A stretch of DNA of 10,101 nucleotides, taken from a virus. The stretch is from UHGV virus genome UHGV-1546666; one strand, written 5' to 3'. Under the pieces are notes generated by a model. That model was not told the DNA's origin, searched no databases, and saw only the letters and a list, made by a program, of their open reading frames with translations. The first letter of the stretch is position 1. Each line of letters opens with the position of its first letter. This document shows positions 2,206 to 9,661 of the stretch, in pieces. The translations under genes were made by a program, and so were the position numbers.

Positions 2206-2307
2206 TCATGGTATTCTGCTCAAAACTAAATTTCTGGAGCGTTTCGTTGGAAGGTATTTGCAGTTTTCGCAGATGATGTCGGTGAAACTTCGTCGCTGTC
2301 GCCTCAT
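2206..2307 (-). pseudogene. ninE: ninE remnant: 26 NinE-like codons followed by unrelated sequence and an early stop (33 aa total)
   Basis: Minus-strand translation from ATG 2307..2305 reads [26 protein letters not shown] then LVLSRIP*. The first 26 residues match my recollection of lambda NinE ([29 protein letters not shown]..., 60 aa). The ATG overlaps the stop of the upstream ORF as ATGA. The ORF is below the 60-aa track threshold. Confidence 0.5.
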
Positions 2308-2906
2308 GCCGCCCTGTCTCCCCATCTTGCTTTCATTGTTTCATTTGCAAATCGCCAGAATCTTCCTTTGTGATATGAGCTTTCGCCATTACAGCAACGA
2401 CTAATTGACGAACTATCAAATCCTTCTCTGACAGCATCCATAGCTGCTTCATAATAAACCTCCTCCCCAGTTTTCATGTCAGTAGAAATAACAGCTTTAC
2501 TGGCAGGATGATCACCACTAAATTTACCTAGCGATATAGGTATTCTTCCATTTTGTTTATATCCGTGCTTTGAGTTTTCAGAATGTGATACCCATTCAAG
2601 GTTTTCAGCCCTATTGTCATCTCTTTGCCCATTTTTGTGATTAACTACCAAGCCATCACAGAACCCTGTACAGAATGCTTTCGCAACTATCCTGTGGGCG
2701 CTGTATTTCTTACCGTATACCTTTATTTGAAGATATCCTGTCGACTTGCACTTGAATGGTTTTACGCTAGTGCCATTAATTATTTTCTTATATGGCCTCT
2801 GTCTGGTTGATGTTACTGTAATTTCCCTCGTAATAGACCTGAAATTTCCTTTATTGCTAACCTGATAAAATGGAATTCCTTCGATATCTACCCAAACCTC
2901 AATCAT
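2304..2906 (-). CDS. HNH homing endonuclease (NUMOD4 motif plus HNH_3-type nuclease motif), 200 aa
   Basis: [21 protein letters not shown] is a NUMOD4-like motif. [11 protein letters not shown]...[25 protein letters not shown] is an HNH_3-type motif (His-Arg, HxNG, DNR, ENLEW). A GGAGG RBS sits 4-5 nt before the ATG, which overlaps the ninB stop. The region is visibly AT-richer than the lambda-core genes. Confidence 0.85.
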
Positions 2907-3704: not shown

Positions 3705-3793
3705 TTCTTAAAGCCTCCAATTACTCTTCCCCAAATAAAAAGGCCTGCGATTACCAGCAGGCCTGTTACAAGCTCAGTGATGTAGATGGTCAT
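3701..3793 (-). CDS. Candidate 30-aa hydrophobic single-helix peptide (MTIYITELVTGLLVIAGLFIWGRVIGGFKK)
   Basis: Found by manual translation; it is below the track threshold. The ATG (3793..3791) overlaps the ren stop as ATGA and the stop overlaps the orf71 start as ATGA, so the frame is exactly bridged between two genes. A terminator-like hairpin lies inside it, which makes the call ambiguous. Confidence 0.35.
   Translation of the reverse strand: MTIYITELVTGLLVIAGLFIWGRVIGGFKK
3735..3764 (-). terminator. tR2-like hairpin downstream of ren
   Basis: 8-bp stem aggcctgc (3741-3748) / gcaggcct (3757-3764) with an 8-nt loop. On the minus strand it is followed by TTTTATTT. Position is analogous to lambda tR2, but it overlaps the candidate small ORF. 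Confidence 0.4.
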
Positions 3794-4080
3794 CTTTTAA
3801 CTCCATATACCGCCAATACCCGTTTCATCACTGCACTCTGGCGACACTCCTTAAAAATCAGGTTCGTGCTCACCTTTCCTTCCCGTTCTTCCCTGGTAGC
3901 AAACCGGTAATACACCGTTCGCCAGACCTTACCATCAATGACAAGGATTCCTGCCCGCGCCATTTTAGCCGCAGCCTGATTTATACTGGTTACGGTTGCG
4001 CCTGTTACCGCGGAAACGTCCTGTGCACAGAAGTTCTTATGCGCCCCGAGGTAATGAATAATTGCCTCTTTGCCCGTCAT
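3790..4080 (-). CDS. ren: Ren protein, 96 aa
   Basis: MTGKEAIIHYLGAHKNFCAQDVSAVTGATVTSINQAAAKMARAGILVIDGKVWRTVYYRFATREEREGK... is near-identical to my recollection of lambda Ren (same length and start). Confidence 0.85.
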   Translation of the reverse strand: MTGKEAIIHYLGAHKNFCAQDVSAVTGATVTSINQAAAKMARAGILVIDGKVWRTVYYRFATREEREGKVSTNLIFKECRQSAVMKRVLAVYGVKR

Positions 4081-4147
4081 ATACTTGCTCCTTTCAGTCC
4101 GAACTTAGCTTTAATTTCTGCGATCTTCGCCAGAGCCTGTGCTCGAT

Positions 4148-4774
4148 TTAGAGGTCTGCCGCCCATGACAGTTGTTTTACTGGTTCAGGTATCGTCTCAC
4201 CACGGTTAATTCTCGCAGTCATATGGACAAGCTCATCTGCGGCCTTACGGCGTAATTCCGCATCAGTAAGCGCATTGGCCCGCATGTTCTGATACAGGTT
4301 GGTAACCAGCCAGTAGTGCGCGTTTGATTTCCACGGATAAGACTCTGCATCCGGATACAGGCCTCGCTTCCGGCAATACTCGTAAACCATATCAACCAGC
4401 TCGCTGGCGTTTGGCAGCCCGGCGGTAACGGATGCTTCTTCCCGGCACCAGGCGACAAACTGCCCGGGTGATGGCAGGAATGGTCGATTCTGCCGACGGG
4501 CTACGCGCATTCCAGCGTTAACCTGTTCCATTGTGGTGATCCCGTTTTCCCGGAAAGCCAGAACCCACTGGCGGCGGATTTCGTTCAGTTCATTCTGGTC
4601 ACGGTTAGCCAGGCTCGCCGGGAAAGTTGCCAGTAACTGGCTGAACACACCGTTGATGATCTGCGCTACCTGCTGTACCTGCGGCTTTTCGTCGTACTGT
4701 TCCGGCATGTTGTTGGCGATCCGACGCATCTGCTCACGGTCAAAGTTAACCATCTGTGCGGCGATGTTTTTCAT
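4148..4774 (-). CDS. P: Replication protein P (DnaB helicase loader), C-terminally frameshifted: 208 aa ending ...KQLSWAADL
   Basis: Residues 1 to about 202 match lambda P (MKNIAAQMVNFDREQMRRIANNMPEQYDEKPQVQQVAQIINGVF...). Downstream, a shifted frame (4170..4081) encodes MGGRPLNRAQALAKIAEIKAKFGLKGASI*, which is the conserved P C-terminus and ends overlapping the ren start. Confidence 0.85.
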   Translation of the reverse strand: MKNIAAQMVNFDREQMRRIANNMPEQYDEKPQVQQVAQIINGVFSQLLATFPASLANRDQNELNEIRRQWVLAFRENGITTMEQVNAGMRVARRQNRPFLPSPGQFVAWCREEASVTAGLPNASELVDMVYEYCRKRGLYPDAESYPWKSNAHYWLVTNLYQNMRANALTDAELRRKAADELVHMTARINRGETIPEPVKQLSWAADL

Positions 4775-5650
4775 AAATCCACCCCGTAAATCCAGTCAGT
4801 GTTTGTCAGGTCGAGTTTTGGTTTGCTGGCTGTCACGCCTGCCTGTTGCTTGTTACGGTTGATTTCGAGCTGGGTCCACTTGTCGCGGAGTTTGGCCGGA
4901 CTTAGCACGTTACCGGACCAGAAGTTGTCCTGGCAGGCCCAGCGGAACAGCACGCACATGTCGCGGTGGTTACGTCCGTCACGTTCACGCATCAGGCGGA
5001 TATCGTTAGCCCACCCTGCAAAATTCGGTTTTCTGGCTGATGGTGCGATGGTCTTCACCATGTCAAACATCCACTCTGCGGCGGTCAGGTCTTCTGCTGT
5101 TCCCCACTTGCTGCCGCTCTGAATTGCAGCATCCGGTTTAACCACAGAAAGATCGTTTTCTGGCTGGTCAGAGGATTCGCCAGAATTCTCGGACGAATAA
5201 TCTTTTCTTTTTTCTTTTGTAATAGTGTCTTTTGTGTCCCCCTGTTTTGAGGGATAGCAATCCCCTAATTTGAGGGATGTTTTATCCCTCGTTTTGAGGG
5301 ATGCACCATTCTGAGATGTTTTTATTTGGTCCAAACATGCCGCCTTGCTGCTTGATAATATTCATTCTGACGAGTTCTAACTTGGCTTCATTGCACCGTT
5401 TGACAGGTAACTTTGTAATCTCGCTAAGTTGAGAATCGGTGATTCTGTCCATTGGTTTATTCCACCCATAGGTTTTACGCAGAATGGCAAGCAGCACTTT
5501 AAACTGTCGCTTGGTCAGATCTGCGCCTGAATAAGCCTCAATCAGCATATTTGATAGTCTGGCGTAACCATCATCGAGATCTGCCACATTACGCTCCTGT
5601 CCGGCAAAGTTACTTCTGCCGAAGTTGAGTATTTTTGCTGTATTTGTCAT
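4771..5650 (-). pseudogene. O: Replication initiator O, split by a frameshift inside the origin iteron array into an N-terminal 122-aa ORF (5282..5650) and a C-terminal 187-aa ORF (4771..5334)
   Basis: ORF 5282..5650 (MTNTAKILNFGRSNFAGQERNVADLDDGYARLSNMLIEAYSGADLTKRQFK...ISEWCIPQNEG*) matches the lambda O N-terminal domain. ORF 4771..5334 contains KTRDKTSLKLGDCYPSKQGDTKDTITKEKRKDYSSENSGESSDQ... to the C-terminus ...TDWIYGVDL, matching the lambda O linker and C-domain. The two are in different frames and overlap by 53 nt. Confidence 0.8.
5237..5301. repeat. Replication origin iterons (three O-binding repeats) with flanking AT-rich region
   Basis: Three inverted-repeat iterons on the plus strand: tccccctgttttgaggga (5237-5254), tcccctaatttgaggga (5261-5277) and tccctcgttttgaggga (5285-5301). 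The gagggat cores are spaced 23 and 24 bp apart. An A/T-rich tract (about 5200-5235) follows in the direction of O transcription, as in lambda ori. Confidence 0.75.
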
Positions 5651-5682: not shown

Positions 5683-5982
5683 TCAGAATTCCATCTGGAT
5701 TTGTTCAGAACGCTCGGTCTTGCACACCGGGCGTTTTTTATTGGTGAGTTCATCAAGCGCATACTTAAAAGCCCTGCTAATCGGACTGATGTCTGATGCC
5801 ATTCCGAAAGCACACAAGACCGAAGCAATAAATCTCCAGTCCGTTCTGCTTATCTTCGATTCATGACAGCCAATCATCTTTGCCAGACCGCGCTGGGTAA
5901 GCGTTGACAGGTTGATAAGTAAATCTGTTTCTGCGCGATCAACGTCGCGCTGTGATAGTTTGCTGTAACTTGTTTGTTCCAT
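5683..5982 (-). CDS. cII: CII transcriptional activator homolog, 99 aa
   Basis: The C-terminus LTNKKRPVCKTERSEQIQMEF is near-identical to lambda CII (ILTNKKRPAATERSEQIQMEF). The central HTH-like segment is TQRGLAKMIGCHESKISR. Position is immediately downstream of cro and nutR. Confidence 0.85.
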   Translation of the reverse strand: MEQTSYSKLSQRDVDRAETDLLINLSTLTQRGLAKMIGCHESKISRTDWRFIASVLCAFGMASDISPISRAFKYALDELTNKKRPVCKTERSEQIQMEF

Positions 5983-6448: not shown

Positions 6449-7096
6449 ATGAAAACGATGCATGAAATTATCGGGGAAAGGATCAAGTCCCTTAGAGAAG
6501 CTAAAGGACTTAGCCAGGCTCAATTGGCCAAGCTTTGCGGCTGGGCTGCGCCTTCACGCCTGGGGAACTACGAGTTAGGAACAAGAAAGGTTAGCGCGGA
6601 TGACGCGCTGGTTCTTGGGGCGGCACTCGGCGTATCTCCGGCAAAAATAATGTTTGGCGAGGATTCAGACGCTGTATTTCGCCAATATGAGTACCCGTTA
6701 TTTTCTTCAGTGCAGGCCGGGCCGTTTTCGGAGGTTGGAAGCTACACAGCAAGCGATGCAAAGGCATGGGTCCCAACGACCACAAAAGCCAGCGAAAAAG
6801 CTTTCTGGCTTGAGGTGAAAGGCCATTCTATGACTGCGCCACAGGGCGTAAGGCCGAGTTTTCCTGAGGGTATGCTGATACTCGTTGATCCGGCCGAGCC
6901 GGTAGAGTCTGGGGATTTCTGCGTGGCTTCTGCAAATGGTGATTCAGAGGCAACGTTCAAGAAGTATGAGAAGGATGCAGGGGTTAGTTACTTGGTTCCA
7001 TTGAATCCGGCATACAGAACCCTGGACTGCGATCACACATGCCGCATCATAGGCAAGGTAGTTAAGGCTCAGTGGCCTGAAGAGACGTTTGGATGA
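6449..7096 (+). CDS. cI: CI-type prophage repressor: N-terminal HTH plus C-terminal S24 (LexA-like) autopeptidase domain, 215 aa
   Basis: N-terminal HTH segment [24 protein letters not shown]. Ala-Gly cleavage site in SSVQAGPF. Catalytic Ser in KGHSMTAP and Lys in RIIGKVVKA. Divergent from cro with operators between. Confidence 0.9.
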
Positions 7097-7146
7097 TGGA
7101 TGGTCGCAGAGATGCTCGTAGAGCATACAGCGATGCAGGAGAATTT

Positions 7147-7581
7147 ATGGCACTTAATTTAGAAAGAATATCTTTTATAACCCCATTTGATAGCAGCGAA
7201 GAACCCAACCAACCGACGCTTAATTTTACATGCAATGAATTTCCTGCGCGGCTATCGATTGATTTCAGGGTTGGTATGATCGGGTTGAAACCAAATTCAA
7301 GATATAATTTGGGTATTATGGTAATCCCCGCGCACCTAATTATAAAAAAAGGTGAGGAAATTCAATTCCCTGACGGCTCTTCGGAATCAGTTTCACTTTT
7401 CATCGATACGAAAGATAGCCATTTTGAAACAGGGGTTGGCGGACAGGTAATAGTAACATTGAAAGAAATTAGGGTCCCAGCTAAAGGGCTGTATAGTGTT
7501 ATAGGGATATTGCAAGATAATGAAGACCCTAAAAATGAACTTCATAAAAATGAATCATTTTTCACCGTAGAGCTATTATGA
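7147..7581 (+). CDS. Hypothetical protein A of the cI-linked accessory cassette, about 144 aa, no recognised domain
   Basis: Start chosen at the ATG at 7147 with RBS AGGAG and a 6-nt spacer (MALNLERISFITPFDSSEEPNQ...). The track's longer ORF starting at 7093 lacks a good RBS. AT-rich relative to cI. The stop overlaps the next gene's start (ATGA at 7578-7581). Confidence 0.6.
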   Translation: MALNLERISFITPFDSSEEPNQPTLNFTCNEFPARLSIDFRVGMIGLKPNSRYNLGIMVIPAHLIIKKGEEIQFPDGSSESVSLFIDTKDSHFETGVGGQVIVTLKEIRVPAKGLYSVIGILQDNEDPKNELHKNESFFTVELL

Positions 7582-8198
7582 GTGACGACAGTAATTTAAA
7601 TAATCATGGAAAGCAAGACACCAACATATCTGAAAGCCGGAGGTTGAAGGTTGTTGGCGGTTCCGATTTTGAGGCTGAATTTGATAATTCTCCCACCAAG
7701 GTGCAAAATAATTACATAAAACCGCCACAAACGGAGGAAGAAGTGGGAACGATCAGCAGAGAGGAACTTGATGCTCGCTTAGCTGCTAATAAAGCAGAGA
7801 TGGAGTCTATTGCTTCTTCCATTAGGACTGACATGGCTCTATCTCGTGAAAGCGTTAATGTCCAATTTGCATCACTTAATGCAGCCATAAGCTCTCTATC
7901 GTCCAAGATCGATGGAAAGATGGATAGCGCTGCTGGCGATATAAAAGCAATTAATGGGAGATTCGAAGGAATTCAAGGACAAATAACAGGGGTTAATACC
8001 GCAATTAGTGGTGTTCAGTCGGGTATTTCTATACGATTAGCCATTTTTAGTGTCATTATCGCTGTAATAGTTGCGATTCCCGGGCTGGTATCAGCTTTAA
8101 AGTCAGACCACGCACCTTTGCAACAGCCTTCCACTTTGCAAGCGCCGCCACAAAATACCCAGCCAACAGACAACAAAAAAATCACTCCCCAGCATTAA
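7578..8198 (+). CDS. Hypothetical protein B of the cI-linked cassette, 206 aa: polar N-terminus, Ser/Ala/Gly-rich coiled-coil-like segment, single C-terminal transmembrane helix, Pro/Gln-rich tail
   Basis: Track ORF, translationally coupled to protein A. The hydrophobic stretch RLAIFSVIIAVIVAIPGLVSAL lies near the C-terminus. The middle segment has heptad-like repeats (ASLNAAISSLSSKIDGKMDSAAGDIKAINGRFEGIQGQITGVNTAISGVQSGI). A terminator follows directly. Confidence 0.65.
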   Translation: MSDDSNLNNHGKQDTNISESRRLKVVGGSDFEAEFDNSPTKVQNNYIKPPQTEEEVGTISREELDARLAANKAEMESIASSIRTDMALSRESVNVQFASLNAAISSLSSKIDGKMDSAAGDIKAINGRFEGIQGQITGVNTAISGVQSGISIRLAIFSVIIAVIVAIPGLVSALKSDHAPLQQPSTLQAPPQNTQPTDNKKITPQH

Positions 8199-8703: not shown

Positions 8704-8976
8704 ATGTCCAGAAAAACAGAATTTAAAGGCACCGCAGCTTCTCGCCGTAGAGCTCGTCGCGCAAACCTGCAAAGTCAGGAGTCGATTAGCTCCGACAAGC
8801 TACACAGGCCAACCCCTTCACGAGTGGTCTTGCAATGCAAGCGCAAACCAGCAATGAGAGCAGAAGTTATAACTCTGACAACGTTGACCAGAAAATATGA
8901 AGGTTCAACTTGTCTTCCAAACGTAGCCATTTACGCTGCAGGCTACCGTAAATCCAAACAACTGACAGCAAGATGA
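8704..8976 (+). CDS. N: N-like transcription antiterminator, about 90 aa, with arginine-rich motif
   Basis: Track ORF trimmed to the ATG at 8704 (RBS GGGAGGA). The N-terminus MSRKTEFKGTAASRRRARRANLQ carries an arginine-rich motif that resembles the phage 21 / P22 class of N proteins (from memory). Located downstream of the pL and nutL candidates. Confidence 0.7.
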   Translation: MSRKTEFKGTAASRRRARRANLQSQESISSDKLHRPTPSRVVLQCKRKPAMRAEVITLTTLTRKYEGSTCLPNVAIYAAGYRKSKQLTAR

Positions 8977-9037
8977 CTTGTGTTGGTCGCCAGAAAATGA
9001 AATTAGGCAGCAAACCACTTATTTGAGAGGAATTAAT

Positions 9038-9661
9038 ATGTCATCAATCCGCTTAACTACGAGAATGAAAGAGGAAATCGCTCGTAACGCTTTAATTAAG
9101 TCCGGGGTGTTCACTGAACTTGAAGAAGTAACAAAGTTAAAGAACCAGCTTGCACTTGACGCCAGAGTTATTGCGTTTGGCGGGAAAAAGAAAACCGAAG
9201 AAGTGGACCAGCTGGCATCAAAGTTAATGGCTGCAAGTGAGGAACTTCAAAAGCTGGGATGTTCATTTTACTCATGCGATGTCAGTTCATGTTCGATTTA
9301 TCTGACTGTATCTGGAAGAAGGGTTGGCTGGCATTCATACGGAAAAGACGGCAACGGTGAAGATATATTGCTCCCTACCCCCGACAAAGATAAATGCATG
9401 TTTGACGCAGAACACAAAATAACAAAAAGGTTTGATGAAATCTGCGCATTGCAACAAAAACTTGAAGCCAGGAAAAAGGATATAGAATCAAACGTATGGG
9501 CTGCTTTGAACTCAGTCACAACAGTTAAGCGACTTATTGAAGTTTGGCCTGAAAGCAAAGAGTTGCTACCAAAAGAAGCAGATAAAGCAAGTGCAGCACT
9601 TCCTGCTTTACGGGTAGAAGATTTGAATAAGATGATTGGACTTCCTTCCGAGGCCGCATAA
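9038..9661 (+). CDS. Hypothetical protein, about 207 aa, between N and the first leftward terminator
   Basis: Track ORF trimmed to the ATG at 9038 (RBS GAGAGGA; MSSIRLTTRMKEEIARNALIKSG...). No family recognised. It occupies the slot where lambda carries ral / sieB / ea10-type accessory genes. Confidence 0.6.
   Translation: MSSIRLTTRMKEEIARNALIKSGVFTELEEVTKLKNQLALDARVIAFGGKKKTEEVDQLASKLMAASEELQKLGCSFYSCDVSSCSIYLTVSGRRVGWHSYGKDGNGEDILLPTPDKDKCMFDAEHKITKRFDEICALQQKLEARKKDIESNVWAALNSVTTVKRLIEVWPESKELLPKEADKASAALPALRVEDLNKMIGLPSEAA

Follow-up and report, generated by a model that had tools for sequence, protein, structure and literature searches.

The window (the whole stretch of viral DNA analysed here, 10,101 nucleotides) carries on its minus strand a lambdoid early-right region with cII, O, P, ren, ninB, and further nin-region genes. 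Divergently, on its plus strand, it carries a repressor gene, two unknown open reading frames (ORFs), N, and an Nmad5 gene. The features considered below are as follows, with contigs L005, L006, L009, and L010 being other assemblies that share all or part of this region.

5683..5982, minus strand: cII.
5282..5650, minus strand: N-terminal fragment of O, 122 aa, iteron-binding domain only (ORF list; Pfam PF04492 Phage_rep_O, E=1.4e-36).
5237..5301, minus strand: ori iteron array, with three iterons left, at 5237-5254, 5260-5277, and 5284-5301 (pattern search).
5285..5295, minus strand: junction of a 20-bp deletion (alignment; junction common to L005, L006, L009, and L010).
4771..5281, minus strand: rest of O, the P-interacting C-terminal part, out of frame (ORF list; lambda O alignment).
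4148..4774, minus strand: truncated P frame, 208 aa, i.e., native residues 1-202 plus SWAADL and a stop (six-frame ORF list).
4397..4673, minus strand: patch of 15 single-nucleotide polymorphisms (SNPs) in P relative to L005 and L006 (SNP map).
4171..4172, minus strand: junction of a 4-bp deletion (alignment with lambda and PA28; same 31-mer in L005 and L006).
4077..4170, minus strand: stranded 3' end of P in the -1 frame, encoding V204-I233 including helix 211-227 (frame translation).
3790..4080, minus strand: ren, 96 aa, intact (ORF list; Ren annotation in PA28 and lambda).

Elsewhere in the window, genes for which a relative was available for comparison were free of frame-disrupting indels, and on the sister contigs (L005 and L006) the called genes were of normal size. 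Between the repressor gene and N lies an overlapping pair of ORFs of 162 and 206 aa (7093-8198, plus strand), in the position that rexAB occupies in lambda. Neither ORF has a Pfam family on record, as judged from the sister-contig gene calls, or a PADLOC hit, and the pair could be an uncharacterised exclusion or defence pair. N itself is located at 8704-8976 (plus strand), and just after it in the early-left operon is the gene for a nucleotide modification associated domain 5 (Nmad5) protein at 8978-9661 (plus strand). Directly downstream of ninB, and overlapping its end, is a 200-aa gene resembling HNH/NUMOD4 homing endonucleases (2304-2906, minus strand); this slot is filled by different genes in two relatives (L003 and L004). 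A PADLOC scan of five unknown neighbour proteins returned no match for four of them and a marginal partial hit (E=0.004) for the fifth, a P63C protein.

The P ORF, whose ATG shares an ATGA with the stop codon of O, ends in the six-frame ORF list as ...EPVKQLSWAADL, i.e., KQLSWAADL. The first-pass annotation had ascribed this end to a frameshift, and alignment with lambda and PA28 bore this out by revealing a real 4-base gap between window bases 4171 and 4172, within CTTCCT at codons 202-203 (CAA CTT CCT GTC ATG in lambda and PA28 versus CAA CTG TCA TGG in the window). The lost bases may be CTTC, TTCC, or TCCT, with the exact position ambiguous through CT..CT microhomology. Such ambiguity is expected of replication slippage, and slippage at the CT..CT microrepeat in codons 202-203 is the probable origin of the loss. 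As a result, P residues 203-233 (31 aa) are lost, with six unrelated residues, SWAADL, in their place; residue numbers are those of lambda P, with K200, K218, and F226 of the published structure and cross-links as fixed points. The loss had been recognised in the first-pass annotation, but the estimate of about 25 residues was too low. Similarly, the affected interval had been given as 4081-4170, and the lesion is at the upper edge of that range, while the range itself is the stranded out-of-frame coding segment.

Translation of both other frames of 4070-4210 (minus strand) confirmed that the conserved P tail, MGGRPLNRAQALAKIAEIKAKFGLKGASI, is intact in the -1 frame, which reads ...TSKTTVMGGRPLNRAQALAKIAEIKAKFGLKGASI* and ends in an ATGA overlap with ren. 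The -1-frame TGA (4079-4077) overlaps the ren ATG (4080-4078), as is likewise the case in lambda. The stranded segment of 94 nt is still open and is identical to PA28 at 93 of the 94 positions. From M205 onwards, 28 of its 29 residues are those of lambda P, and the sole difference (V233I) is at the final residue. A match this close is not due to chance. That these 94 nt have stayed open and differ from PA28 by one base indicates that the P lesion is recent. A gap whose length is not a multiple of three, followed by coding sequence that survives out of frame, is the pattern of a recent-frameshift pseudogene, and the lesion is present in independent sequence data (L005 and L006; 208-aa products on eight contigs). 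Over the aligned O-P-ren region, the window was 98.0% identical to PA28 and 96.9% identical to lambda, with exactly two indels. The translational coupling of ren to P (ATGA) is lost, but with a GGAG of its own upstream of the ATG, translation of ren should continue.

The truncated P still matched Pfam family PF06992 (Phage_lambda_P) over residues 38-198 with E=2.8e-62 and 209.7 bits (cutoff, 26), and the profile was covered whole (positions 1-162 of 162). As the PF06992 model reaches only to residue 198, the loss of the tail would escape notice in a domain scan alone.

The second indel affects the origin and O. The N-terminal domain of lambda O binds the iterons, and its C-terminal domain recruits P. 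In the window, ori has a deletion (20 bp compared with lambda, 59 bp compared with PA28) that joins iterons 1 and 2, with its junction inside an 11-bp direct repeat common to these two iterons, AAAACGAGGGA, and shifts the O frame after residue 122. The resulting O fragment ends ...CIPQNEG*. The remainder of O is without a credible start, and for it the ORF list gives a mechanical 187-aa ORF beginning with TTG (4771..5334). The iteron pattern search gave three matches in the window, against 0.06 expected by chance, compared to four annotated iterons in lambda and six in PA28. The A/T-rich region adjoining the iterons is intact. A functional loader would be expected alongside an intact O with its P-binding C-terminal domain and a complete iteron array, and neither is present here. 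The first-pass annotation had proposed that the P lesion contributes to a replication-defective prophage, and this proposal is strengthened by the frameshift of O through the one-iteron ori deletion.

The segment lost from P has a defined structural role. The cryo-EM structure of the DnaB-lambda P complex at 2.66 Å defines a C-terminal lasso, which is domain IV of P (PMC12661323). The lasso helix (residues 211-227) packs along the docking-helix (DH)/linker-helix (LH) pair of adjacent DnaB subunits, buries ~1400 Å2, and makes its contacts to DnaB through A215, K218, I219, I222, and F226 (PMC12661323). All protomers have an ordered lasso; this holds for the immature B6P6 complex as well, in which residues 210/211 to 232/233 are the only part seen in two of the chains. 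The lasso was judged to be the likely first stably binding segment, and it shears the DH-LH interface that must break for ring opening (PMC12661323). Three lambda P structures are relevant to the comparison (PDB 8V9T, 6BBM, and 8V9S), and the window P, once repaired, matches 8V9T over residues 1-233. In the window as it stands, the lasso helix is not in frame with the globular domain, as it would be in a functional loader.

Conservation of the lost segment was examined with the repaired P. By tblastn against 50,697 phage records, its best place was in 152 records with 95-99% identity, and among the matches listed of those 152 records, all align residues 1-233 in one frame. The homologues aligned were those from Klebsiella (65% identity), Yersinia (50%), HK225/phi80-type phages (47%), Aggregatibacter (29%), and O157 typing phage 9 (32%), and all of them run about 30 or more residues beyond the truncation point. 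The tail motif IPEPVKQ-P..GGRP....L..IAE-KAK-G is conserved in the Klebsiella, Yersinia, and Aggregatibacter phage homologues, down to 29% identity, and in the P homologue alignment the motif P..GGRP...L..IAE-KAK-G is kept by the closer three-quarters. A replication-competent relative with the same P end had been named beforehand as an observation that would overturn the lesion. No such relative was found among the phage records and homologues compared, as the listed close records align over residues 1-233 and the distant ones keep the motif.

These results bear on whether the short P could be a natural variant that still works, in a phage that either can do without the lasso or replicates by means of other functions. 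The complete Pfam domain and the spread of the allele to several samples are compatible with such a variant, and apparently defective prophages can be inducible and transferable with the help of co-resident prophages (PMC2669165). However, no isolated phage with a close P lacking the tail was seen among the matches listed, and the tail motif is conserved even at 29% identity. Moreover, the coding sequence that P has lost is still open and hardly differs from intact alleles, which points to recent damage and not to a terminus shaped by adaptation. The same element also has a broken O and a broken ori, and the allele is absent from the IMG/VR viral contigs. We therefore consider a functional short P to be improbable.

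The first-pass annotation had also suggested impaired helicase loading. This agrees with the identity of the lost segment as the DnaB-binding C-terminal lasso. The predicted translation product, P(1-202) plus SWAADL, would keep the N-terminal region and globular domain III (the Pfam domain). Lacking the lasso (203-233), it would form no three-helix bundle with the DnaB docking and linker helices, and the ring would not be pried open. Without this bundle, the truncated P should fail to open and load the helicase. From structure and conservation, we infer that the truncated P should be unable to load DnaB at the origin and that the stable grip on DnaB is probably lost. With the PF06992 domain (38-198) and the crystallised domain 105-210 (8V9S) nearly whole, some contact with DnaB via domain III may remain.

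Both junctions were also found outside the window. Exact look-up of the 122-aa O fragment, which is labelled E. coli in NCBI, led to contigs from several independent samples, and the P allele was reached through these. L005 (ENA ERZ28658976, 15 kb) and L006 (ENA ERZ27239078, 10.5 kb) are 99.82-99.83% identical to the whole window without gaps, and both contain both junctions. L009 (Logan SRR17126268) and L010 (ENA ERZ658706) contain the O junction but stop short of P. On record, the 208-aa P variants of L005 and L006 occur on five and three contigs, respectively, and the exact 208-aa window P had no match on record. Neither the P junction 31-mer nor the O junction was present in the GTDB species representatives, IMG/VR, or the JGI metagenomes. 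In 5,426 complete E. coli genomes, 86-base queries over each junction gave gapped or two-piece matches only, with neither deletion present. The prophage lineage is a rare one and belongs to E. coli.

In draft genomes, many contigs end within the ori iterons or close to the 3' end of P (L007 and L008; P0033-P0036). Such breaks yield "partial" O and P proteins that can be mistaken for truncation alleles, and surveys of protein length can therefore mislead. L007 and L008 were discounted as further carriers, as these contigs simply end inside the iterons. "Partial" P proteins of 184, 194, and 198 aa, found on many contigs in a 90% cluster, were likewise not used; they are labelled partial by the source and look like truncated calls.

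The window differs from each sister contig by 16 to 17 SNPs, and 15 of these fall within 277 bp of P. Outside this patch, the 10.1-kb window is identical to L005 and L006 apart from three sites. Within it, the base in L005 and L006 is that of PA28 at every site except 4397, while the window carries another allele. Judged from the sequences, the patch resembles a gene-conversion tract with a different lambdoid P allele as donor, which would imply contact with another lambdoid P gene and hints at a co-resident related prophage. The patch also makes the window a separate isolate of the same P allele.

The same contigs decide whether the P frameshift could be a sequencing or assembly error in an intact gene. 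The lack of a recorded match to the exact 208-aa protein and the absence of the junction from the complete E. coli genomes and the three large collections would be expected of an error. In contrast, the identical 31-mer junction occurs in two independent metagenome assemblies from different samples (L005 and L006), and inclusion of the O-junction contigs L009 and L010 extends the evidence to four samples and three contig-naming styles. The 4-bp deletion lies in non-homopolymer sequence without a Dam or Dcm motif, and a second, independent deletion of 20 bp is also common to the contigs. The status of the window as a separate isolate, given the 15-SNP patch, argues in the same direction. An artefact is therefore extremely unlikely, and the assembly error that the first-pass annotation had held in reserve does not explain the frameshift.

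Equally hard to credit is restoration of the frame during expression, by a -1 slip at GTA_AAA_C to give ...EPVKTTVMGGRPL..., an almost wild-type product, or by reinitiation at M205 to give a 29-aa lasso peptide. The tail does lie in the -1 frame, an A_AAA run falls within the 37-nt window between the -1-frame TGA and the 0-frame TAA, and the M205 ATG is 18 nt upstream of the new stop. However, there is no canonical X_XXY_YYZ heptamer but only A_AAA_C, the downstream RNA folds no better than shuffled sequences (z=+0.37; 127 of 200 shuffles fold at least as well), no Shine-Dalgarno sequence precedes M205, and O would stay broken. A_AAA_C is also present in intact lambda P, indicating that nothing here evolved for recoding. 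A programmed -1 frameshift in P was rejected, as a slippery heptamer with a downstream stimulatory structure was not found.

Overall, we conclude with a probability of about 85% that P is a pseudogene formed by a genuine 4-bp deletion and that ori, O, and P are inactivated in a vertically inherited E. coli prophage. The P lesion is ordinary decay of a prophage replication module, of a kind already known, and does not represent a new system. Iteron fusion, the O frameshift, and P truncation together mean that the cis site, the initiator, and the loader have all been hit. On induction, the prophage would be unable to start lambda-type replication, and it would persist by vertical inheritance in its E. 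coli lineage. As the gene-conversion patch suggests contact with other lambdoid prophages, trans-complementation by a co-resident one is plausible, in which case the O and P functions could be rescued but ori could not.

The only two indels in the 10 kb both lie in the O-P block of ~1.6 kb, an arrangement with a probability of ~3% under random placement. These two lesions make selection for loss of replication plausible, within a 10-kb window that is without excision, lysis, and morphogenesis genes. It is less certain that the lesions were favoured or tolerated for putting an end to replicative killing and P toxicity in a prophage whose lytic cycle no longer runs to completion.

It is also conceivable, albeit quite unlikely, that the crippled module is kept because it excludes incoming phages that replicate in the lambda manner. 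The free 122-aa O DNA-binding domain, the three resident iterons, and a lasso-less P that possibly binds O might then poison O-some assembly or titrate the O of a superinfecting phage. Such an effect would be akin to the CI-independent inhibition phenotype reported for cloned fragments of the lambda replication region.

Under the preferred reading of an inactivated replication module, P and O should be marked as pseudogenes in annotation and the prophage should be scored as replication-defective. The P allele is a natural "lasso-less" variant that could be used for testing the structural model of DnaB ring opening, and the lesions are a natural counterpart of those from laboratory replicative-killing selections.

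The window shares with lambda the gene order cII-O-P-ren with ATGA overlaps. Its P is 96% identical to lambda P (gpP) over residues 1-202, with a full PF06992 match. The difference is that residues 203-233 are in frame in lambda, whereas the window frame drops them by the 4-bp deletion. Defective lambda lysogens that are unable to excise are killed on induction through replication in situ from ori and the toxicity of P, and survivors of this replicative killing carry mutations in O, P, or ori (PMC4926192). Among them are O223a (44 bp, ITN1-ITN3) and O208b (7 bp), examples of small deletions in O that join iterons and put the reading frame out (PMC4926192). C-terminal truncation of P does not appear in the 2013 and 2016 Hayes papers, in which the only P modifications of this kind are a C-terminal SPA tag and an N-terminal deletion of 76 codons. 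The window resembles the RK- mutants of the Hayes laboratory (O223a and O208b) in having a small O deletion with a frame shift and a nearby stop. Its 20-bp fusion of ITN1 and ITN2 is exactly the RK- type of lesion, and P inactivation is an alternative route to the same outcome. However, the RK- mutants are laboratory-selected single lesions, whereas O and P lesions coexist here in a natural lineage in which selection can only be inferred. In lambdoid prophages such as the Sp prophages of O157 Sakai, frameshifts, deletions, and insertion sequence (IS) insertions are found, and sequence is exchanged with other prophages in the same cell (PMC2669165). E. coli commonly harbours lambdoid prophages that seem defective yet remain able to interact with their co-residents (PMC2669165), and such interaction fits the conversion patch in P. 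Compared to the Sp prophages of O157 Sakai, the damage within the 10-kb window is confined to the replication module.
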